64,000 nt of DNA from an uncultured Bacteroidota bacterium (GTDB lineage Bacteria; Bacteroidota; Bacteroidia; Bacteroidales; P3): the NCBI GenBank assembly GCA_902776365.1, contig CACYPU010000002.1:131180-195179 (forward strand), written 5' to 3'. Positions 2,533 to 63,386 of this stretch are shown here, piece by piece. Below the pieces are notes generated by a model. That model was given only the letters and a program-made list of their open reading frames with translations. It ran no database searches and had not been told where the DNA came from. The translations under genes and the position numbers were made by a program. Every line of letters begins with the position of its first letter. The stretch's first letter is position 1.

Positions 2533-3534
2533 TCACTCTTGGTTGTCGATGTTGAACTGCAGCGTGGCACCGTCTTTGCGCACGTCGATGGTCACAGGGG
2601 CACCCATCACCAACGGCAGGTTCACCTCGTCGTGGCCGGCAGGGAATCCGCAGAGCACGGGAATGTTGTATTTTTCAAAATAGGGTCGTAACATGGCTTC
2701 GACGCTCTCGTAGGAGAATTCTTTCTCGCAGCCAGTAAACTCGCCCAGTATCACCCCCTTGCAACGGTCCAGAACTCCATTCAAAAGGAGCGCGTTGAAC
2801 TGGCGGTCGACATTGCGCATGGGTTCGTCGACTTCTTCGAGGAAGAGAATGATATCATTCCCGAGGGTGGCGTCGGCTTGGGTTCTGAGATTGGGAGCGA
2901 GGGTGCATAGGTTGCCTCCTACCAGTATGCCGCTGGCTTTACCTTCGATGTTCTGTGGATGTGAGGGAATCTCGTAGTGTGGCACGGATCCCATCAGCAA
3001 GTCGCGCATCAGGGTGCTGTTCTTGTCCTTGCCGCCATGTGCCAGGAATTTACCCATGGTGCCGTGGATGCTCATCACGCCGGCACGTGTCAGGAGCCCG
3101 TGCAGCGTGGTGATGTCGCTGAAACCCACAAGCCACTTCGGGTGTGCGGCCCACTCCTCGAGCGGAATTGAGTCAATGTACTGGATTGTGCCGTAGCCGC
3201 CACGGTTGCAGATGATGGCCTTGATGGTGGTGTCGCTCAATGCCCAGCGCAGGTCGCTCACACGCTGCTCCACCGTTCCGGCATACTTCCCTGCATACAG
3301 GCTGTCGACATTGGGACCGATAACGGGCTCCAATCCCCAACCGCGCAGCACCTCGGCGGCCATTTTTACATCCTCTATTGGAACGGAGTAGGAGGGAGAG
3401 AGGAGCGCCACACGGTCGCCCGCCTTCAAGTAAGGAGGTTTCTCGCAGTGGATATTAATGGCATTTTGGCCGAAAAGATTCGTTGTGCAAACCGATGCTA
3501 GCATAAGCACTAAAATAATTGTTCGTTTTATCAT
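2533..3534 (-). CDS. LD-carboxypeptidase (peptidase S66, LdcA/MccF-like), exported
   Basis: 333-aa ORF with a signal peptide. S66 hallmarks are VGFSDITTLH (nucleophile Ser) and C-terminal GFPAGHD. Confidence 0.85.
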   Translation of the reverse strand: MIKRTIILVLMLASVCTTNLFGQNAINIHCEKPPYLKAGDRVALLSPSYSVPIEDVKMAAEVLRGWGLEPVIGPNVDSLYAGKYAGTVEQRVSDLRWALSDTTIKAIICNRGGYGTIQYIDSIPLEEWAAHPKWLVGFSDITTLHGLLTRAGVMSIHGTMGKFLAHGGKDKNSTLMRDLLMGSVPHYEIPSHPQNIEGKASGILVGGNLCTLAPNLRTQADATLGNDIILFLEEVDEPMRNVDRQFNALLLNGVLDRCKGVILGEFTGCEKEFSYESVEAMLRPYFEKYNIPVLCGFPAGHDEVNLPLVMGAPVTIDVRKDGATLQFNIDNQE

Positions 3535-3568
3535 TCTTGATTCTTAACTCTTAATTCTCAATTCTCCA
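3534..3568. repeat. heptanucleotide array (5 units)
   Basis: TTCTTGA TTCTTAA CTCTTAA TTCTCAA TTCTCCA. It fills the whole gap between the start of 2533..3534 and the stop of 3551..4303, and encodes the C-terminal RIEN* of the latter. Confidence 0.9.
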
Positions 3569-4303
3569 AAACACCCCCACTGATCCGTAGATGGGATACA
3601 GCGTCTGTTCCACCGTCTTGAAGTCGCTTTGGAATATGCAGGAGAGACCCCAGTGCAGGTCGGCGGAAAGTCCGAGACGGCTGCTCATCTGCCAGTCCAC
3701 TCCTATGCCCACGCCCCACTGCAGGCTCCGCATGTCGTCGCTGAAGTCGTATGTGGCCCACTCGCCCTCTTTGTTTCCTATCTCGATTTTAGGTCCTGTA
3801 GGGTCGCCTTGGCGCAGGTAGCCGTCGGAGGCAATGCCGCTGAATTCTTTGGAGACCAGCAGCGACACATAAGGACCTAGTCTAAATCGGAAATCGGAAA
3901 TTGATAATTGAAAACTCACCGGTACTGTTAGCATCCACTGGCTCACCTCCTGTGACACATGTCCCCAAAAGAGGCCGCTAATCTGACTGTTGCCTTTTAC
4001 CATCGCCATGCGATAGCCCCTGACTGTCACCTCTGCATCCATGCCTTTGTTTTCGAGACGGATTCCTCCAACCACGGACCACTGCCCTCTGACCACAGGA
4101 ATAGTCATCTCGGCACCAATGCACGGAGAAAATGTCGGTCGGAAGGCATCGATGCTGCGTATCGACGCCGGCAGGGATAGGGGAGAGGTACCCCCGAAGT
4201 TGTAGCCAATCCGCAACCTCACGTCTACACTATCAATCACTCCCGCCCTGACGCCCATCACGCTCATTAATCCAATTAACCCCAACAATAACGCCTTTTT
4301 CAT
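3551..4303 (-). CDS. outer-membrane beta-barrel protein (PorT/OmpA-barrel-like)
   Basis: 250 aa with a signal peptide (MKKALLLGLIGLMSVMGVRA), alternating beta-strand pattern and an aromatic C-terminus. Confidence 0.7.
   Translation of the reverse strand: MKKALLLGLIGLMSVMGVRAGVIDSVDVRLRIGYNFGGTSPLSLPASIRSIDAFRPTFSPCIGAEMTIPVVRGQWSVVGGIRLENKGMDAEVTVRGYRMAMVKGNSQISGLFWGHVSQEVSQWMLTVPVSFQLSISDFRFRLGPYVSLLVSKEFSGIASDGYLRQGDPTGPKIEIGNKEGEWATYDFSDDMRSLQWGVGIGVDWQMSSRLGLSADLHWGLSCIFQSDFKTVEQTLYPIYGSVGVFWRIEN
3884..3918. repeat. heptanucleotide array inside the OMP CDS
   Basis: AAATCGG AAATCGG AAATTGA TAATTGA AAACTCA. It is translated on the minus strand as ..SFQLSISDFRFRL.. Confidence 0.85.
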
Positions 4304-4338
4304 AACTCTTAATTCTTAACTCTTAACTAATCACTCAA
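4304..4338. repeat. heptanucleotide array (5 units)
   Basis: AACTCTT AATTCTT AACTCTT AACTAAT CACTCAA. It begins directly after the start codon of 3551..4303 and runs into the stop of 4331..5524. Confidence 0.9.
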
Positions 4339-8719: not shown

Positions 8720-9133
8720 CTACTTGAAAAAATCGAAGAAGAAGTACAAGGCGGCGTATCTCTGTGGCACTCCTTTGGCAGAGCCTATGCTGCTATTGTT
8801 GCTGTTGCGGACGGTGCCGTCGCTTTCCACCTTGCCTATCTGGCTGTTATTGCTGTTACGGACGGTGCCGTCGCTCTCTATTTTGCCAATATGTCTACCC
8901 GAACGGTCACGGACGGTGCCGTCGCTTTCGAGTTTGCCTATTTGAGCGCCGTTGCTGTTGCGGATGACGCCGTCGCTCTGGATGTTGCCAATCTTAAAAT
9001 GGTTGCTGCTGCGGACGGTTCCGTCGCTCTCGATGGTGGCAATGGCGGCGTTGTTGCTGTTTCGGATAGTCTGTGCCTGCCCCGTGGACAATAGGCATAG
9101 AATAAAGAATACAATGTAAAATAGACGTTTCAT
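8720..9133 (-). CDS. secreted tandem-repeat protein (6 x 17-aa units)
   Basis: The start is trimmed to MKRLFYIVFFILCLLSTGQAQ (ATG at 9133). The mature part consists of TVRNSNNSQIGKVESDG-type repeats. Confidence 0.7.
   Translation of the reverse strand: MKRLFYIVFFILCLLSTGQAQTIRNSNNAAIATIESDGTVRSSNHFKIGNIQSDGVIRNSNGAQIGKLESDGTVRDRSGRHIGKIESDGTVRNSNNSQIGKVESDGTVRNSNNSSIGSAKGVPQRYAALYFFFDFFK
8765..9070 (-). repeat. 51-nt coding tandem repeat, about 6 copies
   Basis: The recurring peptide unit [TV][IV]R.S[NG]...IG.[IL][EQ]SDG was read directly from the ORF. Confidence 0.8.
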
Positions 9134-9175
9134 TGTTCTGTCTTTCCCCCAATAACGTAAAACCGACCGAAATAT

Positions 9176-9209
9176 TGTACAAAAGCAGGTTGCGTTTGGC
9201 AACCTGCTT
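9176..9209 (-). terminator. intrinsic terminator downstream of tRNA-Met
   Basis: 11-bp stem AAGCAGGTTGC/GCAACCTGCTT followed by TTTTGT on the minus strand. Confidence 0.75.
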
Positions 9210-14595: not shown

Positions 14596-15899
14596 GTTTT
14601 GTGTTTTTCTTTCTTTGCTGCTGGAAACAATATATTGTTCAGTATCAGTCGGTATCCGGGTGAGTTGGGGTAGAGTGAGAGGTCAGTGGGTGGGTCGCCG
14701 ATGAAGTGTCGGTAGTCCTCGGGGTCGTGGCCGCCGAGGAAGGTCCAGGTGCCTTTGCCGTATTCGCCGTGCAGGTAGCGCACCTCGCCCAGTTCCTTGT
14801 TGTCGGCCAGAATGACGCAGCTGGTTTTCACCAGTTCGCTGCGGAAGGCGGTGGTCTGACCCATAAAGCCATGCACCAGACGTGTGTGGTTCTGCGTCAG
14901 CATCGTCGGCACCCAGTCCCATTTGGCCGAGAAGTCGAAGAGCACAAAGAAGTCGTTCTTCTCGTTCACCAGCTTCTGTCGTGTGCGGTCGTCGATGTCG
15001 ATGGTCGATATCTCATATTCCGTGGGGTTGGTACTGATACGGAAGTCTTTGAATGCAAAGCATTTGCTGTAATCCAGCGCCGACTGTGCGTTGGGTTGCA
15101 TGGGGTCGCCGTCGAACATCTCGGCGCAGATGTCCACGCCGTCGGCCGCCAGCGCCACATCGTAGCTGTCGGGTGCCGAGCACATGGCGAAGAGGAATCC
15201 GCCGCCCATCACAAAGTCGCGTATCTTTTTGACCACCGCCAGCTTGAGGAGACTTACCTTGCTGAAGCCCAGCTTGTGCGCTGTAGCCTCCTGCAGCTTG
15301 ACATCCTCGATGTACCACTGCTGGCTGCGGTAGTTGGCCCAGAACTTGCCATACTGTCCCGTGAAATCCTCGTGGTGCAGGTGCAGCCAGTCGTAGGTGG
15401 GCAGCACGCCGCTCATCACCTCCTCGTCGTACACCACGTCGTAGGGGATTTCGGCGTAGGTGAGCACCAGCGTCACCGCGTCGTCCCACGGCATCTTGTT
15501 CTTCGGCGAATAGACGGCGATTTTAGGTGCTTTCTGAAGCTTCACGGCGTCCATGTTGACGCTGGGGTCGGCTATGTAGCTGAGGATGGCGCTGCTTTGG
15601 CCGTCGGCGATGACCTCGCAGGTGACGCCGCGGAGCTTGCATTCGCGCTCGATGGCGTCGGCATGCTTCATCATGAAAGTGCCGCCGCGATAGTTGAGCA
15701 GCCAGGTCACCTCCACCTCGCGCTCCAGCGCCCAGTAGGCCACACCGTAGGCTTTCAGGTGGTTCTTCTGCACGTCGTCCATCGGCAATAAAATATAACT
15801 CGCCTGCGCGTGCGCGAACAAAAAAATAAAACATACGGCAACTGCCACACGCTTGGGAAGTGTGTGGAAACAGTAGCCTCTATTTTTTTCAATTTTCAA
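14592..15899 (-). CDS. conserved exported protein, possible GATase1-like fold
   Basis: 435-aa ORF with a GGGFLFAMCSAPDS nucleophile-elbow-like motif. Its stop overlaps the next start (ATGA at 14592-14595). The only upstream start is a TTG that lies within a TTTTCAA array. Function is uncertain. Confidence 0.6.
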   Translation of the reverse strand: MKIEKNRGYCFHTLPKRVAVAVCFIFLFAHAQASYILLPMDDVQKNHLKAYGVAYWALEREVEVTWLLNYRGGTFMMKHADAIERECKLRGVTCEVIADGQSSAILSYIADPSVNMDAVKLQKAPKIAVYSPKNKMPWDDAVTLVLTYAEIPYDVVYDEEVMSGVLPTYDWLHLHHEDFTGQYGKFWANYRSQQWYIEDVKLQEATAHKLGFSKVSLLKLAVVKKIRDFVMGGGFLFAMCSAPDSYDVALAADGVDICAEMFDGDPMQPNAQSALDYSKCFAFKDFRISTNPTEYEISTIDIDDRTRQKLVNEKNDFFVLFDFSAKWDWVPTMLTQNHTRLVHGFMGQTTAFRSELVKTSCVILADNKELGEVRYLHGEYGKGTWTFLGGHDPEDYRHFIGDPPTDLSLYPNSPGYRLILNNILFPAAKKEKHKT

Positions 15900-15920
15900 T
15901 TTTCAATTTTCAATTTTCAA
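15886..15920. repeat. heptanucleotide array, 5 perfect TTTTCAA units
   Basis: Read directly. It lies between the 5' end of 14592..15899 and the tRNA-Leu 3' end. Confidence 0.95.
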
Positions 15921-15926
15921 TTTGTG

Positions 15927-16008
15927 TGCGGATAGGGGGGCTCGAACCCCCACTCCTCTCGGAACAAGATCCTAAGTCTTGCGCGGCTACCAATTACGCC
16001 ATATCCGC
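15927..16008 (-). tRNA. tRNA-Leu (UAG)
   Basis: Reverse complement is GCGGATA TG GCG..CAAGA CTTAGGA TCTTG, then a long variable arm TTCCGAGAGGAGT, then GGGGG TTCGAGC CCCCC TATCCGC A. CCA is not encoded. Confidence 0.9.
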
Positions 16009-16037
16009 AGGGCTTTTTTTCGGGCAGAAAAATCGTG

Positions 16038-16045
16038 CAAAGATA
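16038..16045 (-). promoter_or_regulatory. -7 box TAnnTTTG for tRNA-Leu
   Basis: Minus-strand TATCTTTG, 30 nt upstream of the tRNA 5' end. Confidence 0.6.
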
Positions 16046-16073
16046 CGCACTTTTTTTTACATAGCAGAAAAAA

Positions 16074-16108
16074 CTTTCACCTTACACCTTTCATCTTTCA
16101 CCTTTCTT
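16074..16108. repeat. heptanucleotide array (5 units)
   Basis: CTTTCAC CTTACAC CTTTCAT CTTTCAC CTTTCTT. It supplies the msrA C-terminal ..KKGER* and the stop codon. Confidence 0.9.
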
Positions 16109-17537: not shown

Positions 17538-17578
17538 TCGGACGGCTTGAAGTTCTTTCAAGCAGAAGGCCGAATAAT

Positions 17579-17606
17579 GGTTAACGGTTAAAGATTAAAG
17601 GTTAAA
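17579..17606. repeat. heptanucleotide array (4 units)
   Basis: GGTTAAC GGTTAAA GATTAAA GGTTAAA. Confidence 0.9.
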
Positions 17607-17625
17607 GAGGCTGCCGCAGCAAAAT

Positions 17626-17660
17626 CGTTAATCATTAATCAGTAAACAGTAATCATTACA
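17626..17660. repeat. heptanucleotide array (5 units)
   Basis: CGTTAAT CATTAAT CAGTAAA CAGTAAT CATTACA. Confidence 0.9.
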
Positions 17661-24958: not shown

Positions 24959-27900
24959 TTATTTGATTTTCTTGATACTTACTACTTTGATGCCCTTCAC
25001 CAATGGGTGGCCGACGAGATTGGCTAAGTCATTAGCTTCTTGTGCATTGGATAGAATTAACAGAAAGTCATAGGCTTCTGTTGCATATGAGCTTGTTCCG
25101 TGACTATTGGGCGATATTATCAGAAAACTATCATTTTCTTTTTTTGTAATGCTGAGCAAGATGGGTTTTCCGTCTAGATAGGATACGAGTTCCTCTTCGG
25201 GATATTCTTCGAAGATTCTTCGTAAGGAGAAGAATCTGTTCTTGAGTGTTATTTTTATTGTGTCTCCCGTGATTTTAGTTTTCCCAATGGCTGTTCCGTC
25301 GAATAGGGGAGATCCGTCTTTAGGGTTCAAGTCGGCATTGGCAAAATTGATTTCCAGTTTTCCCGGGGTGGTTATGAGCTCTTTTATGATGTTGGTGTCT
25401 CTTACGTGTCGTAGGTCGATAGTGTAGAGGTCAGTTCCTGGCACGTTTTGCGGCCAGTTGATATTGTCATGACCCAGTATTTGTTCCAGACGGAGACAAA
25501 TGTTTTGCAGCATCTGTTTTTTCTCTTCCATAAGTTCCCATTCATATTCAAGATTGTAGAGTGTGGGGTATTGAGTGATAAGAGCATGCTCACTGAGATT
25601 GAGAGCGGATTTGAGGCGGGAGAAGAAGGTGCCCACGGTGTCGAACTTCTCTTGTCCGGCCTGAAGGATGGCAAGACTGAGGGTAGAATCCATTTCTTGT
25701 CTGTAATTTGCACGTAGCCAGTCGGCCGGGGAGAGCATGAAGGTGACCCTGATATTAGCACCCAATGTTTGGATGGTTCTGTCAGCTTGAGGGGAAGATT
25801 GGAGGCATGTTGTGGGTGTTGGCAAGGTGAAATTGAAAGATGGTGTTTGGTGGTTAGTGGTTTGTAGGGGCTGTCTTCTGTACCTGACCTGTTTCAAGGT
25901 GAGTAGGTGGTCGCGAGGGTTGAGCTCAATACTGAAATTGTCAAGGACGCTCATGCCGAGGAGCAGTGGTGCAGTGTCTTGCTTGGTGATGGAGGCTGTC
26001 ACATCGTGGAGGACGATGCCTCCGATTTCGACGGTTCGGAGTAGGACGACGGGTCTTACTTCCGAGCTTCCGTTGGCACAAATATAGGTCATGGTTGTCA
26101 CAGAATCTTCGCTCATTTTTAGCGTGCCATTCGCAATCATCTGTTTGGCCATCTGATTAGAAATCTGTACATGTCCGGATCCAGAATCGAATATCAAACT
26201 GTCAGTGATTCCGTTGAGGGTACAACTTACTTTCATCACCCCGTTTGATGTGTGGTATTCGAGAAAGGCGATGTTGGTGTCTATTTCGAGCGAATTTAGT
26301 TCAAGGTTTTGTTCGAAGAAATTCGGTAGCTTTTTCCATACAGTTTCCATGTAGGGAAGAACTTTTGCTTCGGAGAGTAGCATGGGATCGTGAGAAAAAC
26401 GCTGCATGGCATCCACGCTTTTTATTGCTTCTTCAATGTGTCCTGTCATGCTGTAGATTTGTGCCAGATAGAGGTGATTATAAGCGGCTTTCAAGGAGTC
26501 TTCCCCATTGTGGTAGAAATTGTACTCAATGAGAGTGTCCAGTTGGAGGTAGAATGGCTCGGCGAGTTTGAGGGCCAGATTTTTATTGCCGAGCAGGGCG
26601 AGGATAAAAGCTTTATCGCCGTCGGAAGTCTTTTCGTTTTCAAGGGCAGCATTGAAATCTGTCAGGGCTTTCTCGCTGTATTCATTGCGTTTGTTGTCGG
26701 AGACGGCTTTTTGGGCCATGTTATGGTAGCAGACTCCGCGCATCAATAGGCCATAAGGAGTCGTTTCTTTTGAGAGATATTTGTCAAAATAATATATTGC
26801 CTCAAGGTATTGCCCATTTATATAGTAGGTTCTACCGTTGTACAAGTCCAAATCAATGCTACTGAATTCGTATTCCGAGTAGAGATTTCCAGTATTGCGG
26901 GTGTGGCGCAATGCGTTGATGAAGCCGTCACCCCAGTAACCCAACTCTTGAAGACATAGAAATTGATTGGTGAGCAGGACATTGTCGTGACAAAAACGTG
27001 TGGATATGGAGTCATAGAAGACCAGTGCTTTTTCATAAAAAGATTTTGCCCCTTCGATATCCCCGTTTCTTTTTTTGAAATCTCCCTGTCTCATTAGCCA
27101 GAACATAGGGTAAGCAGCATAAGGTGTAGTAATCCAGATTGTTTTTCCCAGTATGGGGATTTCTATCATGTTGTTCAGCCCTGGATAAAGCATACGGCGG
27201 TTATTGTAAAAGAATTTTCCTATCTCATTCTCGCGTTTGTAGTAGGCACTCGTGTCTCCTTGGGCAATATAAATCCATTCCATGAAGTCAGTGTTGTGTA
27301 TTGCTTCTATAGAATTGAGTTTTATGTCGGCTAGGATATAGAAATAAGTGGCTGCATCAAAATATGAAGAAAGTCTTTCGTAGTTGTTCGGCCAGTCCGG
27401 GTCTTGAATAAGCCGGTTAAAACTTGTATCGTTGTTTATTTCGACACCTGTAAAAACGATTTTGTAAAGAGCATGGGCTATATCTGTGTAGTATTTGGCA
27501 AGGGCTAAGCATGATTCTATGGCTATCTGACAGGAGGTGTCAGATAACTGGGAAAAACCGGTATAAGATTGTGATTTTTCAAATGTTTTTGCAATGGCAA
27601 TATTGTCTTCGATGTTTTGTTCAGGGAGGTCTGCGACAAGGTCTGCATGTCGGCGCAGCGACCATACATACAAATCGCATAGACTCGGGTAGCTTTGCCA
27701 TTTCTCGTAATCTAAGTAGTGATGGTTCTCAATGGCTTCAAAATAGCGAATGGATTCTGTCAGGCTTTTGATATCTCCTTTTTGGTAGAGACGTTCCATT
27801 TTCTTGTATGTTTCTGCATAGAGCTCGGTCTGCCCTTGAATGATATGACGCCATGCCTCTTGTTGCATTTCAGGCAACTCTGGTAGGATGTCGTCAGGTG

Positions 27901-33400: not shown

Positions 33401-33477
33401 AACCATATTTCGACCATATTTCTACCATTGTTCTTCCATTTAAATGAAAGAACAATGGAAGAACAATGGAAGAACAG
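33401..33477. repeat. seven 11-bp units with dyad symmetry
   Basis: AACCATATTTC GACCATATTTC TACCATTGTTC TTCCATTTAAA TGAAAGAACAA TGGAAGAACAA TGGAAGAACAG. The arms are inverted about position 33441. Confidence 0.85.
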
Positions 33478-34342: not shown

Positions 34343-35074
34343 TTATTTGTCTGTTTTTTTCTTGCGGCCGCGTTTCAGGGGGACGCTGTTTTTGGCTTTG
34401 ATATTGCTTTTGGCTTTGGTATTGGTCTTGGTTTTGGTTTTGTTTTTTGTTTTGGAGGGTTTGACCATTTCTTCCTCGGGGATGGTGGCGTCGAGTGGTG
34501 GGTTTTCGGCCTCGAAGTATTCGGCCTCGATGCCGCGGATGTCGTCGTCGGTGGGTTCGAAGTCGTCGTCGGAGGGTTCGTCGTCCTCGTCGGTTTTCTC
34601 GTAGCTGTCGAGTTCTTCGACGTCGTCGTCGTCGCCCAGGGCGGCGCGAATTTCCTCTTTGTTGATGCCGAGGGTGAGTTTTTTCTTTCGTTTTTCGTCG
34701 TCCTCGAGGTTGGTTTCGAAGTCGCCGTGGCGCAGGACGCGTTCTTTGTGTGAGGGGTCGACTTCTTCTTTTTCGAGGGCTTCGCTGATGGGTGCGAATT
34801 CGTCTTCCTTGCCGTTGTCATCCTCGTCGTCGAAGAGTGCTTTGTCGAGGTCTTCGCCGAGGGTGTCAATGACGACTTCGAATTTGACCATGTAGTTGGT
34901 GTCTGGGGTCTCGAAGGGGACGACAAAAATAGTGTCGCCGTTGGGCTTGGTGAAGCGTTGGAGGTGGTCGTTGTATCCGTCGGGATAAGCTTCTTTGAAC
35001 TTTTCCTTGAGGTTATCGGAAAGGTTCTTATAGCTGACTATCAGGTTGTTTTTGCGTTTTTTGGTAGCTGTCAT
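34343..35074 (-). CDS. hypothetical highly acidic protein with Lys-rich C-terminal tail
   Basis: The start is trimmed to MTATKKRKNN. It has long D/E runs and then ..KTKNKTKTKTNTKAKSNIKAKNSVPLKRGRKKKTDK. Confidence 0.6.
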   Translation of the reverse strand: MTATKKRKNNLIVSYKNLSDNLKEKFKEAYPDGYNDHLQRFTKPNGDTIFVVPFETPDTNYMVKFEVVIDTLGEDLDKALFDDEDDNGKEDEFAPISEALEKEEVDPSHKERVLRHGDFETNLEDDEKRKKKLTLGINKEEIRAALGDDDDVEELDSYEKTDEDDEPSDDDFEPTDDDIRGIEAEYFEAENPPLDATIPEEEMVKPSKTKNKTKTKTNTKAKSNIKAKNSVPLKRGRKKKTDK

Positions 35075-35130
35075 AGTTGTTGGAATTTGGTGCAATAATA
35101 GGAAGTTATTTTGATATAGCAAAATTTTTT

Positions 35131-37059
35131 TTAACCGACCACGATAGATTCATCGTCTTCGATGCGTAGGTTGCTCATAATGAATTCGCGTCGTTCGAGG
35201 GTGTTCTCGCCCATGTAGAAGGAGAGGACGCCTTTGGTGTCGAAGTCTTTGTGGAGTAACACGGGGTCGAGGCGCATGTCTTTGCCGATGAAGTTCTTGA
35301 ATTCGTCGGGAGAGATTTCGCCGAGGCCTTTGAATCGGGTGATTTCGGCCTTGGGAGTGTCGTGGATGGCGGCGATGCGTTCGTCGTCGGTGTAGCAGTA
35401 GGTGGTTTTCTGTTTGTTGCGTACGCGGAAGAGTGGAGTCTGGAGGATGTAGACGTGGCCTGTCTGGATGAGTTCGGGGTAGAAGCGGAGGAAGAAGGTG
35501 AGGAGGAGTAGACGAATGTGCATGCCGTCGACATCGGCATCGGTGGCGATGACGACGTTGTTGTAGCGAAGGTTTTCGATGCCGTCGTCGATGTCGAGGG
35601 CGTTGTGGAGTAGGTTAAGTTCCTCGTTCTTGTAGACGTCGACTTTGGAGATGGAGTAGGTGTTCTTGGGTTTTCCGCGGAGGGAGAAGACGGCCTGGGT
35701 GTCGACATCGCGAGATTTTGTAATGGAGCCGGAGGCGGAGTCGCCCTCGGTGATGAAGATGGTGCTTTCGAGTCGTCGGGCGTGGTTGGTGTTGTAGTGG
35801 ACGTGGCAGTCGCGGAGCTTGCGGTTGTTGAGGGAGGCTTTCTTGCCGGCTTCGCGAGCCACCTTCTTGATGCCTGCTATCTCTTTGCGTTCCTTTTCGT
35901 TGGCGTTGATTTTAGCGAGTAGGGCGTCGGCGGTTTCGGAGTGCATGTGGAGGTAGTTGTCGAGGTTGCGCTTGAGGATGTCGAGGACGTAGGTTTTGAG
36001 GAGTGGCGAGTCGTTGGAGCCGTCGACCTTGTTGGGTTCGAGGTGTGTGGAGCCGAGCTTGGTTTTTGTTTGAGCCTCGAAGACGGGTTCTTGGATGCGG
36101 ACGCAGAGGGCGCAGACGAGTCCCTGTCGGATGACTTCAGGGGAGTAGTCTTTCTTGATGAAGTCCTTGACGACGCGTGCGTAGGCTTCGCGGAAGGCGC
36201 TCTGGTGAGTGCCGCCCTCGGTGGTGTGCTGGCCGTTGACGAAGGAGTAGTAGTAGTCGTTGGATTGGCCGTTGACGTGGGTGAAGGCGGCTTCGAAGTC
36301 GCCCTCTTTGATGTGGATGATGGGGTAGAGGGGGTCGGACTGGAGGTTGTTCTCGAGGAGGTCGAGGAGTCCGTTCTTGGAGTAGTAGCGGCGGTCGTTG
36401 TAGTACATGGTGAGGCCGCGGTTGAGGTAGCAGTAGTTCCAGATGCGGCGTTCGACGTATTCGGAGATGAAGTGGTAGTTGCCGAAGAGCTTGCTGTCGG
36501 GGATGAACTCAACCAATGTGCCATTGGTTGAGTCAGTGGGTAGTGGGTGGTGGGTAGTGGGTAGTATTTCTGTAATGCCACTGTCGTTGGTGAGTTTGCC
36601 TTCGGAGAATTCGGCGATGCGGGTTTTGCCGTCGCGGATGGCTTGCACTTTGAAATAGCTGCTGAGGGCGTTGACGGCCTTGGTGCCCACGCCGTTGAGG
36701 CCCACGGACTTCTGGAAGACTTTGCTGTCGTATTTGGCTCCGGTGTTGAGTTTGCTGACGGCTTCGACGAGTTTGCCGAGTGGGATTCCGCGGCCGTAGT
36801 CGCGGATGGAGACCTTGCGTTCGGCGAAGTTGATTTTCACTTCGATTTTCTTGCCGAAGCCAGAGGTGAATTCGTCGATGGCATTGTCGATGACCTCTTT
36901 GATGAGGACGTAGATGCCGTCGTCGTGTGAGGAGCCGTCGCCGAGTTTGCCGATATACATACCGGGACGGAGGCGGATGTGTTCCATGTCCTCGAGGTGG
37001 ACGATGGAGTCGTCGTTGTAGTCGATGGGATTGGTGTTGAGTAGGTCTGTTTGCTCCAT
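35131..37059 (-). CDS. parE: DNA topoisomerase IV subunit B
   Basis: GHKL ATPase motifs ([15 protein letters not shown]) and Toprim motifs ([17 protein letters not shown]). The N-terminus is Bacteroidota ParE-like rather than GyrB-like. Confidence 0.85.
36534..36568. repeat. TAGTGGG-family heptanucleotide array inside parE
   Basis: CAGTGGG TAGTGGG TGGTGGG TAGTGGG TAGTATT, translated as [13 protein letters not shown]. Confidence 0.9.
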
Positions 37060-37064
37060 GATAT

Positions 37065-37099
37065 CAGTGTTCAGTGTTTAGTGGGTAGTTGATTATTCT
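37065..37099. repeat. heptanucleotide array filling the parE/upstream-gene gap
   Basis: CAGTGTT CAGTGTT TAGTGGG TAGTTGA TTATTCT. Confidence 0.85.
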
Positions 37100-39123
37100 T
37101 CATCGAGTTTCATTTCGGATGTGATGGTGTAGCCTGTTTTTTCGCCGTCGGAGACGGGTTGGCCAGTGAGGATGGTGAACTGGCTTTCGCTGACTCCTTG
37201 CTCGACGAGGTAGCGGCGTACGATGCCGTTGCGGAATTCGTATCCGCGGGCCACGGTGTCGTTGGCGGGGGCGGGCATGTGCTGTTCGAGGGTGAAGTGG
37301 ACGAGGGAGTCGGACTTGGCGATGGTGGCGAGGTCGCCGAGGATATGGTAGTGCTCGGAGGTGAGTCCGCGCTGGCCGGGTTCGATTTCGATGAATTCGA
37401 GGTTGTCGTTGCCGAATCCGAAGACGTTACCCAGTGCGCGGACGGGCGAGGTGGCCACTTTGACGAGCAGGTTGCCGAGGGTCTTCCATACGATTTTCAT
37501 GTAGCTGAACTCGGGGCTGTCGATGTTTCCCGCGACGGGGATATCGAAGAGAATCTTGTCGTCCTTGTCTTTGAGGATGTAGAGGGCGGTTTTGAGAGGC
37601 AGCTTCTGCTGAGGCTCGATGTCGCTGCGACGGCTGCCGACCTTGGCTTTGTAGATGTCGATTTTGTTTTTGCCGTTGAGGCTGCTGTTCTTGATGGTGT
37701 TGTGCGAGGTGAGGCCGAAGATGCCATCCTCGATGGGTTGGCCGGTGTAGTAGACCGACCATGGTGAGAACTGCCTCATGTCGAGACCTTTGATGGAGAT
37801 GAAGATGTCCTGATGCTGTTTCCAATGGTCGATGTCGCCGGTCCATTTCACCATCAGATGGCCTCCGCCGGGCAGGGTGGCGCGGAGTTTGGCGTTGTTG
37901 CTGCCGCTGAGGGTGAGGTCGGAGGCTTCGATATTGAGGTCGGTGATGGGGAAGGTGAAGAGGTCGGGGAGGGTGTGGTCGTTGTAGGTGAGGTTGCCGT
38001 TGGTGACGGCGAACTCGTGGACGGTCAAGTTGAGGGGACTTCCGGTGGTGTTGGTGTTGGTGTCTTCGGGTTCTTCGGGTTCTTCGGAATTGACGGGTTC
38101 TTCGGAATTGACGGGCTCTTCGGAATTGCCAGATGTTTTTATCAGGCCGTCGATGGTGCTGTGGTCGGCCCATTGGTCGTAGCGGGCGGTGAGGCCCTCG
38201 AGGCGTAGGCTCTGGATGTCGTAGTTGTTGGCGTCGAGGTTGATGTTGTTGACGGCGATGTCGAGCCGTTGCCATCCAGCCACCTGGCCGTTGTTGTCCT
38301 GCAGGTCGACTTCCGACACCGTCACGGTGCCGCCGATGCGGCTCTTGGTGATTTCGCTGACGTTGCCAGAGGCTTTGAGGTGAAGGTCGAGTTTGCCGCT
38401 GAGTTTCTGGTAGTTGAGGATGTCGGAGAGGATGGGCGCCAGGTTGTCGAATTTGAATTTCTCGAGTTTGACGGCGAGGTCGTAGGTGCCCTGTTGTTCG
38501 TGGTAGCTGCCGGCGATATTCAGGTGACCGCCTTTGGCGAAGGCGATATTGAGGCCACCCTCGCTGGCTTGGTCTCCGCCCAATTCCAGATTGGGAACCA
38601 GGAGGTTGATGTCGGGCAGGTGCCACTGTTTGTTTTCGCCGACGTCGTTGTAGTGGATTTGGGCGTGGCTGAGGCGTATGTTGTGGAGTTTGATGAGCCA
38701 GTCGCTCGGGGTGGTGTCCTGCACCTCCTCGGTGGTGTCGGAGGCGAAATGGTCGAGCATGGTTTGGAAGTTAAAGTCCTCGCCACGCTTGACGATGTTG
38801 ACATTGAGTCCCGAGAGGGTGATGTGCTCGAGTTCGACGGTATGGCTGAGGAGTTTGAAGAGGCTGGCTTTGGTGTCGAGGGTGTCGAAGCGGGCGAAAA
38901 CATCTTTCCCGTTGTCTTCGTAGAGGGTGAGGCCGAGGATGGCAACATGGCCGTTGTAGACGTTGATGGTGACGTCGTCGACATGCACCTCGCGGCCTAC
39001 CAGCTCCTTGCCGTGACTGTTGATGTAGCTTTTGGCGATGGGTGACAATAGCAGTGTGGCCAGGATGATGAGTGCCAGCAGGATGCCTATTGTCCACAGG
39101 ACTATTTTCCAAACACGTTTCAT
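37093..39123 (-). CDS. membrane-anchored AsmA/DUF748-like protein
   Basis: 676 aa with an N-terminal TM (IVLWTIGILLALIILATLLL) and a long beta-rich body. The DUF748 assignment is from memory of Bacteroides homologs. Confidence 0.65.
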   Translation of the reverse strand: MKRVWKIVLWTIGILLALIILATLLLSPIAKSYINSHGKELVGREVHVDDVTINVYNGHVAILGLTLYEDNGKDVFARFDTLDTKASLFKLLSHTVELEHITLSGLNVNIVKRGEDFNFQTMLDHFASDTTEEVQDTTPSDWLIKLHNIRLSHAQIHYNDVGENKQWHLPDINLLVPNLELGGDQASEGGLNIAFAKGGHLNIAGSYHEQQGTYDLAVKLEKFKFDNLAPILSDILNYQKLSGKLDLHLKASGNVSEITKSRIGGTVTVSEVDLQDNNGQVAGWQRLDIAVNNINLDANNYDIQSLRLEGLTARYDQWADHSTIDGLIKTSGNSEEPVNSEEPVNSEEPEEPEDTNTNTTGSPLNLTVHEFAVTNGNLTYNDHTLPDLFTFPITDLNIEASDLTLSGSNNAKLRATLPGGGHLMVKWTGDIDHWKQHQDIFISIKGLDMRQFSPWSVYYTGQPIEDGIFGLTSHNTIKNSSLNGKNKIDIYKAKVGSRRSDIEPQQKLPLKTALYILKDKDDKILFDIPVAGNIDSPEFSYMKIVWKTLGNLLVKVATSPVRALGNVFGFGNDNLEFIEIEPGQRGLTSEHYHILGDLATIAKSDSLVHFTLEQHMPAPANDTVARGYEFRNGIVRRYLVEQGVSESQFTILTGQPVSDGEKTGYTITSEMKLDEE
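38064..38130 (-). repeat. 9/18-nt coding tandem repeat (SEEPVN)
   Basis: TCTTCGGGT x2 then TCTTCGGAATTGACGGGT x2.5. The protein reads SEEPVNSEEPVNSEEPEEPE. Confidence 0.85.
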
Positions 39124-39694: not shown

Positions 39695-40306
39695 TTATTC
39701 GTAGAAGTGCATCTCTGTGAGGTACTTGTACACCGGTTCGGTGAGCAGGTAGCGTACGTCTTTATGTGCCGCGATTTGCTGTCGGATGTAGCTGGAGGAG
39801 ATGTCCATCATGGGCACGTCGACCATTGTCACGCTGGGGTGTGAGGCGAGTTCGCAATGCTCGGAGCCGGGACGGGGATAGACGAGGAGGCGGTAGTGGT
39901 CGAGGATATACTGGTAGTTGCGCCATTTCTTGAATGTGTAGAGGTTGTCGCTTCCCATGACGAGGCAGAACTTCCGGTCGGGGTATTTTTCCTGTAGTGC
40001 GGCGAGGGTGACCACCGTGTAGCTGGGGATGGGGAGGTGCATCTCGATGTCGCAGACTTTCAGACGGTAGTTGTCGTCGATGGCCCGCTGCACCATCTGC
40101 AGGCGGTGGTGGTCGGCGAGGAGGGAGGCGCGTTCTTTCAGCGGGTTCTGTGGCGAGACGACAAGCCACACCTCATCAACGCCCTCCAGCTGGAGTATGG
40201 TATTGGCGATGATGAGGTGCCCGACATGAATGGGATTGAAGGAGCCAAAAAAAAGAGCGGTGCTCTTTTTTTTAGTGGGTAGTGGGTAGTGGGTAGTGGG
40301 TAGCAT
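39695..40306 (-). CDS. nadD: nicotinate-nucleotide adenylyltransferase
   Basis: FFGSFNPIHVGH (HxGH) and ISSSYIR motifs. The ATG at 40306 gives an N-terminal [15 protein letters not shown] that is encoded by the heptamer array. Confidence 0.85.
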   Translation of the reverse strand: MLPTTHYPLPTKKKSTALFFGSFNPIHVGHLIIANTILQLEGVDEVWLVVSPQNPLKERASLLADHHRLQMVQRAIDDNYRLKVCDIEMHLPIPSYTVVTLAALQEKYPDRKFCLVMGSDNLYTFKKWRNYQYILDHYRLLVYPRPGSEHCELASHPSVTMVDVPMMDISSSYIRQQIAAHKDVRYLLTEPVYKYLTEMHFYE

Positions 40307-40404
40307 ACTACAACTATTTCTCTGAAGGTAGGGTGTTGGCAAGGGAGGATGTGTAGGTAGTATGCCCCATATGCTACACACTACCCACTATCCACTACCC
40401 ACTA
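40273..40404. mobile_element. MITE-like unit: two 35-nt TAGTGGG-array arms in inverted orientation around a 62-nt spacer
   Basis: Left arm is TAGTGGG x4 + TAGCATA (40273..40307). The right arm (40370..40404) is its reverse complement with 2 mismatches. Confidence 0.6.
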
Positions 40405-40998
40405 ATAATATTTATACGCTGTCTCGACTTTGATGTGGCGGAGTTTTGTGCCTTTGAAGGTGTAGATTTCGGCTACTTCGCCGGCGCCGGAGATGATTTT
40501 CAGCACCTGCACGTCGGCGGTGTATGACTTGGGATATTGTTTGAAGAAGACCTTGAAGACATCATCTTTCGACATGCCCACATGCAGTCCGTTGGCCAGC
40601 ACCACTTCGGGGTCGTTGATGCGTCCTCCGAGGAGCTCCACCTTGCGTGTCCAGATGGAATAGAAGAGGTCGAGGTAGCTGTCGTCGAGGCGTTTGATGC
40701 GGTTGACGCTCACTTCCATGGAGTCGAAGTAGCGGCGATAGTCGCTCTCGCGGTACCAATGCAACTTATTGTCGGTCATGAAGTATTCGATGGAATCCCA
40801 TTGGCCGAAGGGGTAGATGACTTGGCTCGACAGCGAGTAGACGGTCATGGTGTCGGCATATACCTTGATATCTTTAATCTGGTATTCAGGGCGGCTGAAA
40901 CTCATCATGCGCATGGCTTTGGCGCGTGATGCCACTTGCTGTGAGAAAGCCATGGAACTGCATAGCACCAAGGCTGCTAAGGTCAGTATTCGTTTCAT
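40402..40998 (-). CDS. hypothetical exported protein
   Basis: 198 aa with a signal peptide (MKRILTLAALVLCSSMAFSQ). Confidence 0.6.
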   Translation of the reverse strand: MKRILTLAALVLCSSMAFSQQVASRAKAMRMMSFSRPEYQIKDIKVYADTMTVYSLSSQVIYPFGQWDSIEYFMTDNKLHWYRESDYRRYFDSMEVSVNRIKRLDDSYLDLFYSIWTRKVELLGGRINDPEVVLANGLHVGMSKDDVFKVFFKQYPKSYTADVQVLKIISGAGEVAEIYTFKGTKLRHIKVETAYKYY

Positions 40999-49057: not shown

Positions 49058-49080
49058 CGAAAAAAAAATCAACTGACCAA

Positions 49081-49115
49081 ATTTTCAATTCTCAATTTTC
49101 ATTTTTCAATTTGAA
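49081..49115. repeat. heptanucleotide array (5 units)
   Basis: ATTTTCA ATTCTCA ATTTTCA TTTTTCA ATTTGAA. It encodes the ispE C-terminal ..FQIEK* and the stop. Confidence 0.9.
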
Positions 49116-49890
49116 AGATGCCAAAGACGGCAGCCCCGCTGCCGGTCATGGAGGCGTAGAGGGCTCCGCGGCGGTACATCTCCTCCTTCAGTTCCGCAAT
49201 GGCTGGATGCGCAGGGAAAACTGAAGCCTCGAAGTCGTTGACAATGAGGTTGCGCCATTCCTCGACGGGTTTCTTTATCGTCTCCCGCAAGTTGGGCCGT
49301 GTCGCGCCGAACAGGTCGTGGTTTAGGCCGGCGTAAGCTTCTTTCGTCGACACATGCTCCCCTTCGGGAATCTCAATTTGAATTGAAAATTGAGAATTGA
49401 GAATTGAGATTTCGTGAAGTGACTCTAACTGGTCACCGATGCCAGTGGCAAAAGCGGGGCGGTTCTGGATGAAGAAAGCACAGTCGGCACCGAGTTTGGC
49501 GGCACGTTGCTCCAATTCGGCGGTACTCAACTCCAAAGAGAACATCTCATTGAGCATCTTCAGCGTGAAGGCGGCGTCGCTGCTGCCGCCACCAAGGCCT
49601 GCACCGAAGGGGATGTTCTTCTTCAGTCGGATGCTCACGGCAGGGATGTTAAACTCCTCATGCAGAAGCTTCCAGGCATTCATACAGAGGTTGTCTTCGG
49701 GGGCGTTGTCAAGGGCGATGCCGTCTTGGGACATAGTGGGTAGTGGGTAGTGGGTAGAGGGTAGTATTTCCAGCTCGTCTCGGAGGTCGCTGACTGGAAG
49801 GAAGATGGTCTCCAGGTCGTGGTAACCGTCCGCCCGCTTGCCCACCACGTGCAACCCCAGGTTTATCTTACAATTCGGAAAAGAAATCAT
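49099..49890 (-). CDS. ispE: 4-(cytidine 5'-diphospho)-2-C-methyl-D-erythritol kinase
   Basis: GHMP kinase motif PFGAGLGGGSSDAA and N-terminal PNCKINLGL. Confidence 0.9.
   Translation of the reverse strand: MISFPNCKINLGLHVVGKRADGYHDLETIFLPVSDLRDELEILPSTHYPLPTMSQDGIALDNAPEDNLCMNAWKLLHEEFNIPAVSIRLKKNIPFGAGLGGGSSDAAFTLKMLNEMFSLELSTAELEQRAAKLGADCAFFIQNRPAFATGIGDQLESLHEISILNSQFSIQIEIPEGEHVSTKEAYAGLNHDLFGATRPNLRETIKKPVEEWRNLIVNDFEASVFPAHPAIAELKEEMYRRGALYASMTGSGAAVFGIFQIEK
49371..49412. repeat. heptanucleotide array inside ispE
   Basis: TCTCAAT TTGAATT GAAAATT GAGAATT GAGAATT GAGATTT, translated as EISILNSQFSIQIE. Confidence 0.85.
49734..49768. repeat. TAGTGGG-family array inside ispE
   Basis: TAGTGGG x3 TAGAGGG TAGTATT, translated as EILPSTHYPLPTM. 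Confidence 0.9.
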
Positions 49891-54137: not shown

Positions 54138-55157
54138 CTATATGTTTAGTTTCCAATATCCGTTCTTGTCCTCGCCTATACGTATTAGAATACCCATTTC
54201 TTTCAATGCCGCAATATTTCGTGTAATAGTTGATCTGTCCACATCAAGAGTTGTTGCCATTTCATCGTATGTGGTATAAGGATTATTTCTTAGAATATCT
54301 ATAATGGCAGCTTGTCTCTTAGTTATATTTACAGGTGCATTTACAGGTGCATTTACAGGTGCATTAAGCGGCTCACCTTTATGTTGCAGTACGGACTTAT
54401 GTATCTCCTCCAGCATAAAGTCGATGAAGGGACCACACTCGCCCTGCTTGGTACTTTGGGCGATGGCGTCATAGTAGGCCTGCTGGTTGGAATAGACCAT
54501 ATTCTCCACAGGCAGGTGCGCAAAAGCAGGGTGCCAGCGGCTGAGGATGAGCGACTGCCACAGGCGGCCCATACGTCCGTTGCCATCGATAAACGGATGG
54601 ATAAACTCGAACTCATAATGGAAGACACAGCTGCGCACCAACAGGTGGTCGTCGGCATTCTTCAGCCAGTCGAAGAGGTCGGACATCAGCCCATGCACCC
54701 TGTCGGATGGAGGGGCCATGTGTACCAGGCCGCTCTCGGAATAGACGCCTACGCCGCCCCTGCGGAAATGACCTGCGTCATCGGTCAAGGCGGACATCAT
54801 CAGTCCGTGAGCCCGCAGTAGGTCGTCCATCGAGAAGGGGTCGAGCTTTTCAAACTCATCATACACCCGTATGGTGTTCTTCACCTCCTGAATCTCGCGG
54901 ATGGGTGCCACCACCGTCTTGCCGTCAAGGATATCGGCCACCTCACTCTCCCGAAGACGGTTGCCCTCTATGGCCAATGAGCTATGGATGGTCTTGATAC
55001 GGTTGGCCTTGCGCAGCCGCAAGGCATCGCTCTGCTCCATACGGATGGCAAACCGCTCCATCTGGGCGGCGATATCCGCCACCAGCCCCACTGCCTTCGC
55101 CGACAATGTGAAAGGTGGTTTGTATCCATTATATGTCTTTGTCTTTTTTTCAGCCAT
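54138..55157 (-). CDS. Fic family protein (class II, N-terminal inhibitory helix) with C-terminal wHTH
   Basis: Fic motif HPFIDGNGRMGR, inhibitory motif SLAIEGN, and a C-terminal HTH (..VDRSTITRNIAALKEMGILIR). Confidence 0.85.
   Translation of the reverse strand: MAEKKTKTYNGYKPPFTLSAKAVGLVADIAAQMERFAIRMEQSDALRLRKANRIKTIHSSLAIEGNRLRESEVADILDGKTVVAPIREIQEVKNTIRVYDEFEKLDPFSMDDLLRAHGLMMSALTDDAGHFRRGGVGVYSESGLVHMAPPSDRVHGLMSDLFDWLKNADDHLLVRSCVFHYEFEFIHPFIDGNGRMGRLWQSLILSRWHPAFAHLPVENMVYSNQQAYYDAIAQSTKQGECGPFIDFMLEEIHKSVLQHKGEPLNAPVNAPVNAPVNITKRQAAIIDILRNNPYTTYDEMATTLDVDRSTITRNIAALKEMGILIRIGEDKNGYWKLNI
54328..54363 (-). repeat. 3 perfect 12-nt repeats (NAPV x3) in the Fic linker
   Basis: TTTACAGGTGCA x3. 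Confidence 0.9.
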
Positions 55158-63235: not shown

Positions 63236-63320
63236 CGAATTTTCCACGACATGGACAAATTATATTTAAAAAGGTTTTCAACATAGCATCAACCTGCAAT
63301 CACCCTACCATCTCCTATCA

Positions 63321-63386
63321 GGGTAAGAGGAGGGTAAGAGATAAGTAAGAGTTGAGTAAGAGTTGGTATAGAGTTGGTGTTGATTA
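63321..63386. repeat. six degenerate 11-bp tandem units
   Basis: GGGTAAGAGGA GGGTAAGAGAT AAGTAAGAGTT GAGTAAGAGTT GGTATAGAGTT GGTGTTGATTA. Confidence 0.8.

Follow-up and report, generated by a model that had tools for sequence, protein, structure and literature searches.

How does an array of heptanucleotide repeats come to be translated within an essential enzyme, and what is the source of such an array? The question is posed by parE, the essential gene for topoisomerase IV subunit B, in a 64-kb stretch of DNA from an uncultured Bacteroidales bacterium (contig CACYPU010000002.1). This whole stretch is termed the window; all coordinates are positions in it, and P and L numbers denote the ortholog proteins and loci that were compared. 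An earlier sequence-only reading took the array to be an inserted repeat element. The feature is real and that reading is correct. The ParE segment is probably a one-armed, in-frame derivative of a palindromic element, the arms of which comprise approximately 4.4 tandem heptamers (~30 nt).

The gene lies on the minus strand (35131..37059) and encodes 642 residues with the Pfam domains HATPase_c, DNA_gyraseB, Toprim and DNA_gyraseB_C. Relatives in Bacteroidales metagenome-assembled genomes (MAGs) at JGI and NCBI are annotated as topoisomerase-4 subunit B or type IIA topoisomerase subunit B. The plus strand at 36532-36568 reads GT CAGTGGG TAGTGGG TGGTGGG TAGTGGG TAGTATT, in which TRF detects period 7, 4.4 copies and 91% matches (36532-36565). 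These letters, the TRF result and the translation bear out the claim that the array is read in frame:

36535..36570, minus strand: in-frame segment of 12 residues (ParE 164-175), encoded by the heptamers CTACCCA CTACCCA CCACCCA CTACCCA together with GAAATA.

GAAATA is a remnant of the inner junction of the element and the terminal unit on the plus strand is TAGTATT. Three units make seven codons, so that (CCCACTA)n gives the cyclic peptide LPTTHYP in any frame. The CCCACTA strand has a stop codon in none of its three frames, the TAGTGGG strand has a TAG stop in all three. The peptide is shared between copies because the unit dictates it, with seven codons for every three heptamers on a stop-free strand.

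Is the segment an insertion? Among 120 ParE orthologs of 87-100% identity the position of the array is the sole hypervariable stretch. Most of these proteins have 11-14 residues between the conserved flanks GI...GT. The nearest, P0127 and P0121 (both 95% identical) and P0002 with others (94%), carry a short unrelated loop instead of the array, and the DNA of L003/L004 (P0127) at this point is GCGGTCGACGGTTCGGCCGTCGAC, bearing no resemblance to it. The TAGTGGG-family array in ParE is confined to a species-level cluster and one allele of 96% identity. All four 642-residue members listed in the species-level 90% cluster (99.4-100% identical) have an identical insert. The ortholog alignment that the sequence-only reading had proposed as a check has thus turned up proteins of 94-95% identity that are devoid of the segment. 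Insertion, as opposed to ancestral sequence, is supported since the nearest orthologs have no array, a non-repeat junction is shared between copies and in-frame copies occur in unrelated proteins. That the segment is ancestral and was lost by other lineages would fit the variable length of the loop, 11 to 35 residues overall; it is nevertheless very improbable, as array alleles are rare, scattered and nested among short-loop relatives, and the DNA belongs to a dispersed repeat family that is present in intergenic DNA too. An assembly or sequencing artefact is less credible still. Repeats can mislead assemblers, and nothing more specific speaks for it, whereas the exact 642-residue protein occurs with its frame kept on 39 NCBI and ENA contigs (a cluster of 37 member sequences, including MCR5445311.1) and related copies are found in independent assemblies and in closed plasmids.

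What was inserted? The allele of 96% identity (P0130, locus L001) carries a longer insert with two arms at this very site, and the two alleles share their right boundary, CCCACTGACTC. This insert, GAGTGGG CAGTGGA CAGTTGA CAGTGGA TAGCAC-ACGCGAACAA-ATGCTA CCCACTA CCCACTC CACACTA CCCACTG, is hairpin-shaped with both arms and is translated as GVGSGQLTVDSTREQMLPTTHSTLPT. The window sequence ACA GAA ATA CTA aligns with ACA CGC GAA CAA ATG CTA of L001, and on the strength of this alignment the window copy looks like the L001 element shorn of its left arm.

Related DNA is present elsewhere in the window. Nearly the same DNA and peptide had been noted in ispE and at the start of nadD, and both copies are real:

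40271..40307, minus strand: right arm ATGCTA(CCCACTA)x4, which gives the nadD ATG and an 11-residue N-terminus (40274-40306).
40308..40370, minus strand: inter-arm loop of 63 nt, ~35 nt of which is left from the 3' end of a deleted PF05635 (S23p) gene.
40371..40406, minus strand: left arm TAGTGGG TAGTGGA TAGTGGG TAGTGTG TAGCAT, which pairs with 40271-40307.
49735..49770, minus strand: in-frame TAGTGGG-family arm in ispE, coding for EILPSTHYPLPT, with the same GAAATACTACCC junction as in parE.
49381..49409, minus strand: array of a second family (TCTCAAT/TTCTCAA), read in frame within ispE as ISILNSQFSIQ.
49080..49108, minus strand: array at the ispE stop codon, TTGAAAA/TTGAGAA in the sense strand, which adds the C-terminal residues QIEK.

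The terminal unit is, as had been proposed, kept in all of the TAGTGGG-family copies, in the form TAGTATT in parE and ispE and TAGCATA/TATGCTA at the nadD locus, where the nadD ATG falls within TAGCATA. The arms at the nadD junction fold into a 35-bp stem (dG -62.9 kcal/mol, z -8). The upstream gene (40402..40998) ends on the first TAG (40402-40404) of the inverted family copy at 40371-40404. The empty junction seen in L085/L087 is TATTGATGAAACAT, with a stop codon overlapping the nadD ATG; the element has replaced TGATG and supplied a new stop (the first TAG), a new start (the ATG of ATGCTA) and ten nadD codons. Two nadD alleles differ by exactly three units, ATGCCA CCCACTA (one unit) as against ATGCTA(CCCACTA)x4. 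At the nadD junctions of L003 (6270-7046) and L004 (6768-7197), which have no S23p gene, the spacer is full of long heptamer arrays whose unit drifts from TAGTGGT through GAGTGAG to GAATTAA, and other repeats (AATCTACAAGATCTACGAGATCTCGCCGCAGGC) are present too. In ispE orthologs both in-frame sites hold the same array, decayed versions of it, other arrays (ESGKWKV, from GAAAGTG, and RIKNEEL) or a short form.

A 20-mer pattern of the TAGTGGG family has 12 matches in the window, where 0.01 would be expected. The window contains 12 arrays of period 7, all of 29-38 bp, compared with 0-2 for every other period from 4 to 12; at the lowest threshold there are 16 period-7 runs, two or three of them weak, and the figure of 12 holds at a stricter threshold. 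Most of these arrays lie exactly at operon junctions, spanning the upstream stop codon, the downstream ATG or both.

Could the ParE array be a local microsatellite, produced by polymerase slippage from a chance seed in the loop and unrelated to any element? The two nadD alleles separated by exactly three units are what slippage would give, array copy number is very variable, up to ~20 units, and the over-representation of heptamers in bacteria has been ascribed to slippage (PMC4692102). We nevertheless consider this origin unlikely. The array-free orthologs have no seed (GCGGTCGACGGTTCGGCCGTCGAC). The parE and ispE copies share the non-repeat GAAATACTACCC, and the nadD and S23p copies share ATGCTA, neither of which slippage can make, and the same unit recurs in unrelated genes within a 78-nt two-armed structure with a conserved loop. 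A non-repeat junction and loop in every copy would tell against slippage, and this is already largely what is seen. Slippage can explain changes in length after insertion, not the origin of the array.

The 78-nt structure emerged from a scan of metagenome contigs by exact pattern, which gave 42 loci. Many of these have a gene-less, two-armed element, GGAGTGGGTAGTGGACAGTGTGTAGTGGATAGCAC-N10-ATGCTA(CCCACTA)x4, which keeps both arms and the TAGCA...TGCTA junction and has one stop-free frame encoding a 26-residue peptide. Six distinct copies within open reading frames (ORFs), the L001 parE allele among them, are 71-78 nt long as delimited and are all read in one and the same frame. Pfam identifies the long host ORFs as UvrC, a MurF-like ligase, a GH2 beta-galactosidase, TruA and alpha-2-macroglobulin (two copies). 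One-armed in-frame copies occur in CopA, a MurD-like ligase, ManC and a glycosyltransferase. In the in-ORF copies the left-arm TAG that would be in frame is CAG or GAG; this opens one frame and weakens the stem, and it explains how a stop-rich arm can enter an essential gene. There is no covariation within the 78-nt family, since all of its copies belong to one family and covariation is seen between families only.

Does the element have a parent that carries a gene? At the nadD junction of L001 the two arms surround an ORF of 121 residues that is the PF05635 23S rRNA intervening-sequence protein (E = 2.7e-37). A second match is TIGR02436 (four helix bundle protein), and there is a weaker one to Avd (PF22296, E = 2.7e-8; NF033474, E = 2.9e-7; scores below the family cut-offs). 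The full form is a TAGTGGG array ending in TAGCA, the PF05635 gene, then TGCTA and a CCCACTA array. PF05635 is the sole ORF of this long form, in which no recognisable transposase is found. Six further Bacteroidales species (L005-L010) have the same cassette at the nadD junction, with arm units that vary (TAGTGGG, TAGTTGG, CAGTTGG) and are each complemented in the opposite arm. The loop at the nadD junction of the window still aligns with the final ~35 nt of the L001 PF05635 ORF.

The association extends well beyond Bacteroidales. We surveyed 80 loci with a PF05635 ORF, taking one genome per species, from Bacteroidales, Ruminococcus/Clostridia, Saccharibacteria, Chloroflexi, Ignavibacteriota and others. 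A period-7 array lies within 150 bp of an ORF end at 68 of them. Array density within 150 bp of the ORF ends is 3.5/kb, compared with 0.16/kb in the outer flanks, a 22-fold difference. Of 36 two-armed loci, 30 have arms whose units are reverse complements of each other with at most one mismatch, as against approximately 20% for shuffled partners. Arms have a median length of 30-31 nt, which is that of the ParE array too, and copy number in these loci varies widely, up to ~20 units. The idea that stop codons are limited to the upstream arm as a general design was rejected, as across phyla a sense stop is present in 35 of 49 upstream and 37 of 55 downstream arms; the stop asymmetry between arms is specific to the TAGTGGG family.

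Closed cyanobacterial plasmids served as a check independent of MAGs. Twelve regions were read and nine show the arrangement of array, gene and complementary array:

Nostoc edaphicum plasmid: (AGTAGGG)x7, gene, (CCCTACT)x5, between two ribonucleotide reductase genes.
Anabaena sp. 90 plasmid: ACAGGTG/CACCTGT arms, between cas6 and cas4.
Nostoc C052 plasmid: GGGAACA/CTGTTCC arms.
N. punctiforme pNPUN01 and pNPUN02, and Aulosira: TCAGGAG/CTCCTGA arms.
Calothrix brevissima plasmid: TAGGGTG/CACCCTA arms.
Geminocystis and Calothrix sp. PCC 7716: the same architecture.

These cyanobacterial cassettes (L131-L139) sit in short spacers between functionally linked genes, namely nrdB/nrdA (on the opposite strand), cas6/cas4 and conjugation genes, and their heptamers resemble STRR repeats. 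Viral contigs yielded a single S23p locus, and phage as the main vector is unsupported. In that locus (L130, an IMG/VR contig, 840-1500) an S23p cassette with heptamer arms seemingly lies inside a larger ORF, the flanks resembling one continuous protein (...LAYAGGEF / DKDNVIPITDEEY...). Among the papers searched, none states a general association of heptamer arrays with PF05635, and the single one that joins the two, on the Coxiella intervening sequence, does so for one locus; the searches took in the peptide and the DNA units as well.

Why is the ParE loop affected? Other lineages carry unrelated DNA at the same position. L085 has CATTCAA CTCTCAA CTCTCAA TTCTCAA TTCTCAA, translated as QLSTLNSQFST, L086 has ACTTTCA/ACTTTCC units, translated as ELSTFNSPLST, and L087 has a GC-rich palindrome. 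Judging by their peptides, P0038, P0058, P0084 and P0103 may record further events in this loop. The array-bearing lineages are rare and scattered over the ParE tree, each nested among short-loop relatives. The common array-free loop AVDGSAVD (L003, ~10480-10510) is itself encoded by a palindrome, GTCGACGG-TTCGG-CCGTCGAC. The site may draw hairpin-forming DNA in general. We take the hairpin at the segment to be solvent-exposed and far from the ATP site, as would be presumed for GyrB/ParE from the GHKL fold. The segment aligns to a variable inter-strand stretch, GGKPVTTLKKIGTALKSKTGT, in the GHKL domain of Streptococcus pneumoniae ParE (PDB code 4em7). An AlphaFold2 model of ParE places it between strands 155-159 and 180-187 with pLDDT below 50; the model, built from a shallow alignment of 31 sequences, is poor (mean pLDDT 42) and was used for strand order only.

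Is the segment of any use to the cell? It might be kept as a Pro/Thr-rich module of ParE or as a nucleic-acid signal, for example a G-quadruplex on the template strand, an RNase III site or a regulatory site. Several observations are in keeping with this. The insert is fixed and identical in the four listed 642-residue cluster members, the ispE insert is common to orthologs of 75-84% identity, and the arrays at gene junctions place stops and starts with precision. In Xanthomonas and Nostoc, G-rich heptamers have been studied as G-quadruplex-forming repeats (PMC4692102), and (GGGTAGT)4 matches a G3N4 x 4 motif, which fits the plus strand at 36532-36565, 40273-40303 and 49734-49764, the G-rich strand being the template in parE, nadD and ispE. 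Yet sister lineages have unrelated array families or a GC-rich palindrome in the same ParE loop and most lineages have none, some ispE copies have decayed (e.g. HPSTGSKQPT, TGTQASLPA), the peptide is wholly determined by the DNA unit, and the ParE copy, with its single arm, cannot form a long stem for want of a partner. A retained function thus seems improbable to us. The sequence-only reading had left a choice between an element tolerated in frame and one selected there. Tolerance is supported; for selection on the peptide itself no evidence was found. The peptide would be incidental to the DNA sequence and tolerated because the loop that holds it, between two beta-strands, is variable, and the element would be selfish or neutral in ParE.

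How, then, might the palindromic element have spread? The flanks of the in-gene copies are informative:

36507..36533, minus strand: perfect 12-bp palindrome ACTCAACCAATG(gca)CATTGGTTGAGT, directly 3' of the parE array in the sense direction.

One arm of this palindrome is native and encodes TLVEF; the other repeats those codons in inverted orientation and encodes DSTN. Perfect fold-back duplicates of native flank, 9-12 bp long, follow the array in the window ParE, in the L001 ParE (10573-10600) and in L107 (minus strand). Between the window and L001 ParE palindromes four of 12 stem positions differ, and all four are compensated. Orthologs without the array also have no palindrome. The nadD junction, the sole one for which filled and empty forms are comparable, shows no target-site duplication, and none is seen beside the in-gene copies. 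The net change in length is often much smaller than the array, as in P0061, where an array of 35 nt adds a net four residues only; native sequence has therefore been replaced and not simply added to. Units are homogenised within arrays and between the two arms.

The compensated flank duplicates point to fold-back or template-switching synthesis, or to active quasipalindrome correction, rather than cut-and-paste. We infer that the element would spread by copying-in, through hairpin or fold-back DNA synthesis with template switching and not by classical cut-and-paste transposition, because the one comparable junction shows no target-site duplication, native sequence is often replaced and inverted flank duplicates accompany three in-gene copies. 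The order of events may have been from a full element, with arms and PF05635 gene, to the gene-less 78-nt form and on to the one-armed in-frame ParE copy. What the window allele has kept is just the stop-free CCCACTA arm along with part of the loop. Our hypothesis is that S23p is a trans-acting factor. Its homology to Avd invites the speculation that it binds nucleic acid and perhaps recruits a polymerase or reverse transcriptase.

Several points weigh against the descent of the ParE segment from a mobile palindromic element. The window ParE copy is single-armed and has no long stem, so that the two-arm palindrome is absent there; a partner arm sought in the mRNA was not found, the sole pairing being of 6 bp with native CAGTGG. 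That it is a one-armed derivative is what the L001 allele and the shared junction make it look like, and the copy may instead have arisen by independent insertion of one arm. The window has no intact PF05635 gene, only the remnant. No transposase, integrase or reverse transcriptase is tied to the element, no insertion event was caught within a population, and we infer mobility from distribution alone. The three-unit difference between nadD alleles looks like slippage. At the second ispE site there are hints that some arrays were seeded from, or targeted to, matching native sequence. Finally, surface exposure of the segment leans mainly on the alignment and the general features of the GHKL fold, the model being of low confidence. 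The ispE observation concerns 49381-49420, where the unit TCTCAAT is the reverse complement of the adjoining native ATTGAGA (IEI of an IEIP motif) and a 9-bp hairpin results.

The remaining period-7 arrays of the window are as follows:

37060..37092, minus strand: array TCAACTA CCCACTA AACACTG AACACTG in the spacer before the parE ATG, of the same superfamily as the parE array.
3531..3566, minus strand: junction array with the stop codon of an OMP beta-barrel gene and the ATG of an LD-carboxypeptidase gene.
4300..4328, minus strand: junction array between the stop codon of a PCMD-domain gene and the ATG of the OMP gene.
16072..16106, minus strand: GTGAAAG-type array containing the msrA stop codon, upstream of a tRNA-Leu gene.
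15886..15923, minus strand: perfect (TTGAAAA)x5.4 array, which begins 2-3 nt past the 3' end of tRNA-Leu.
17572..17652, no strand assigned: two adjoining intergenic arrays, of GGTTAAA and TAATCAT types, upstream of a sigma-70 gene.

The first occupies the whole 33-bp gap between the stop codon of an AsmA-like gene and the parE ATG. The tRNA-Leu gene (15926-16008, minus strand) is flanked on both sides by arrays of like orientation (15886-16106). Short in-frame arrays of 2.7-3 units are present at 5490-5508 and 25841-25862 (CTAACCA CTGACCA CTGAC; AACCACT AACCACC AAACACC, minus strand), SQWSVV being encoded by one of them, within the N-terminal extension of a PCMD-domain lipoprotein, and TTNHQTP by the other, within a protein of 1090 residues. 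An Rfam scan of the window gave three tRNAs only, with no family over the arrays and no rRNA. There are tandem repeats of other kinds. An 18-bp repeat in the AsmA-like gene (38063-38128, 2.9 copies, 97% matches) encodes NSEEPV NSEEPV NSEEPE, and a 51/102-bp repeat (8783-9034, ~4.9 copies, 70-80% matches) overlaps the ORF 8720..9202. Repeats of 11-12 bp, e.g. ATTTACAGGTGC x3.2 (perfect) and AATGGAAGAAC x3.1, occur at 33402-33476, 54327-54365 and 63320-63376 and fall outside the heptamer family. Just downstream of parE (34343-35122) a low-complexity, charged, D/E/K-rich protein is encoded with internal repeats of 6, 18 and 21 bp.

In rumen Bacteroidales the element has reached many genes as well as junctions between genes, and enzymes such as ParE, UvrC and Mur ligases have gained approximately 12-26 residues. 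To our knowledge, translated selfish repeats inside essential genes are a textbook rarity, essentially known from Rickettsia; the present element adds a second case, one that differs in mechanism and comes from bacteria abundant in gut and rumen. There are practical consequences. Gene callers will misplace starts and stops at array junctions, and the inserts inflate the apparent diversity of metagenome proteins. The link between the arrays and cassettes of the PF05635/S23p intervening-sequence type is apparently newly described, and it provides testable hypotheses for the role of S23p, the origin of rRNA intervening sequences and the excess of heptamers in some phyla.

How does the element compare with systems already described? 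Nearest to it are the Rickettsia palindromic elements (RPEs) and the rRNA intervening sequences of the S23p type. RPEs are selfish palindromes read in frame (summarised in PMC10969869), reportedly described by Ogata et al. (2000). RPEs and the present element share a short palindromic family found in frame in many unrelated housekeeping genes, a conserved peptide, presumably fold-compatible sites and the lack of a transposase. As in RPEs, the same repeat is in frame in unrelated genes (ParE, IspE and NadD; UvrC, TruA, GH2 and others), and the two-arm trait is seen in the L001 allele, the 78-nt copies and window 40271-40406. RPEs differ in being ~100-150 bp long, without tandem heptamers or a known associated gene, and in belonging to Rickettsiales. 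The present element has arms made of 7-nt arrays, a 78-nt short form and a gene-bearing form and belongs to Bacteroidales. Sequence homology between the two is not expected.

In the S23p intervening sequences (IVSs) of rRNA in Leptospira and Coxiella, too, terminal inverted repeats pair into a stem of ~28-35 bp whose loop contains a PF05635 ORF, and forms with and without the ORF both occur (PMC4990558). The S23p-bearing IVS of Coxiella has a terminal stem of 28 bp and, at its 5' end, a variable number (2-3) of tandem GACAGAT heptamers; RNase III cleaves where the first of these starts (PMC4990558). A PF05635 ORF enclosed by inverted repeats with a stem of at least 25 bp is likewise a property of the element family (L001, L005-L010). 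The location is different. IVSs interrupt helix 25 or 45 of 23S rRNA, from which RNase III excises them, whereas the present elements occupy operon junctions and protein-coding sequence, and an mRNA would not survive their excision.

Heptanucleotide repeats of the STRR type are said to have been described in cyanobacteria by Mazel et al. (1990). Like the arrays considered here, known heptanucleotide repeats form short 7-nt arrays beside start codons or overlapping stop codons, are of unexplained origin, and have one strand with stops in three frames, the other being sometimes read inside ORFs. Dispersed short arrays, mostly at gene boundaries, are thus common to both. MacGregor reported TAACTGA repeats in Beggiatoaceae, Cyanobacteria and five Bacteroidetes, with similar placement at gene boundaries and no mechanism given (PMC4679880), and Rehm et al. 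reported convergent pairs of GGGAATC arrays in Xanthomonas and the GGGAATC/GGGGAYT repeats of Xanthomonas and Nostoc (PMC4692102). The units described (CCCCAGT, TTGGTCA, CAACAGT, TAACTGA, GGGAATC) are not those found here, which are TAGTGGG, TTGAGAA/TTGAAAA, GTGAAAG and others, and neither paper has a link to PF05635 or a two-armed element read in essential enzymes.

REPIN/RAYT systems and MITEs (PMC3116915; PMC10969869) also combine hairpin repeats, dispersed in many copies, with a gene-bearing relative that is rarer. However, recognisable transposases are encoded by RAYTs and by MITE parents, and MITEs make target-site duplications; the present element has inverted arms, but no target-site duplication is seen at the one comparable junction and no transposase in the long form. 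PF05635 is a four-helix bundle of 120 residues with no known catalytic activity. Avd of the diversity-generating retroelements is homologous to PF05635, but neither a reverse transcriptase nor a template/variable repeat pair is seen next to the cassettes, where there is no room for a reverse transcriptase because the cassettes fill short spacers between unrelated genes.

We raise, as a tentative and rather doubtful proposition, that PF05635 with heptamer arms defines one wide class, embracing rRNA intervening sequences, STRR, the TAACTGA/GGGAATC repeats and the in-frame arrays of Bacteroidales, in which S23p acts in trans. S23p would then bind the heptamer stem and promote hairpin- or RNA-templated copying, possibly borrowing a reverse transcriptase as Avd does, and gene-less arms would be its non-autonomous offspring, readable in one frame. 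The element itself is best filed as a combination of two known kinds, the in-frame palindromic selfish DNA typified by RPEs and the heptanucleotide arrays.

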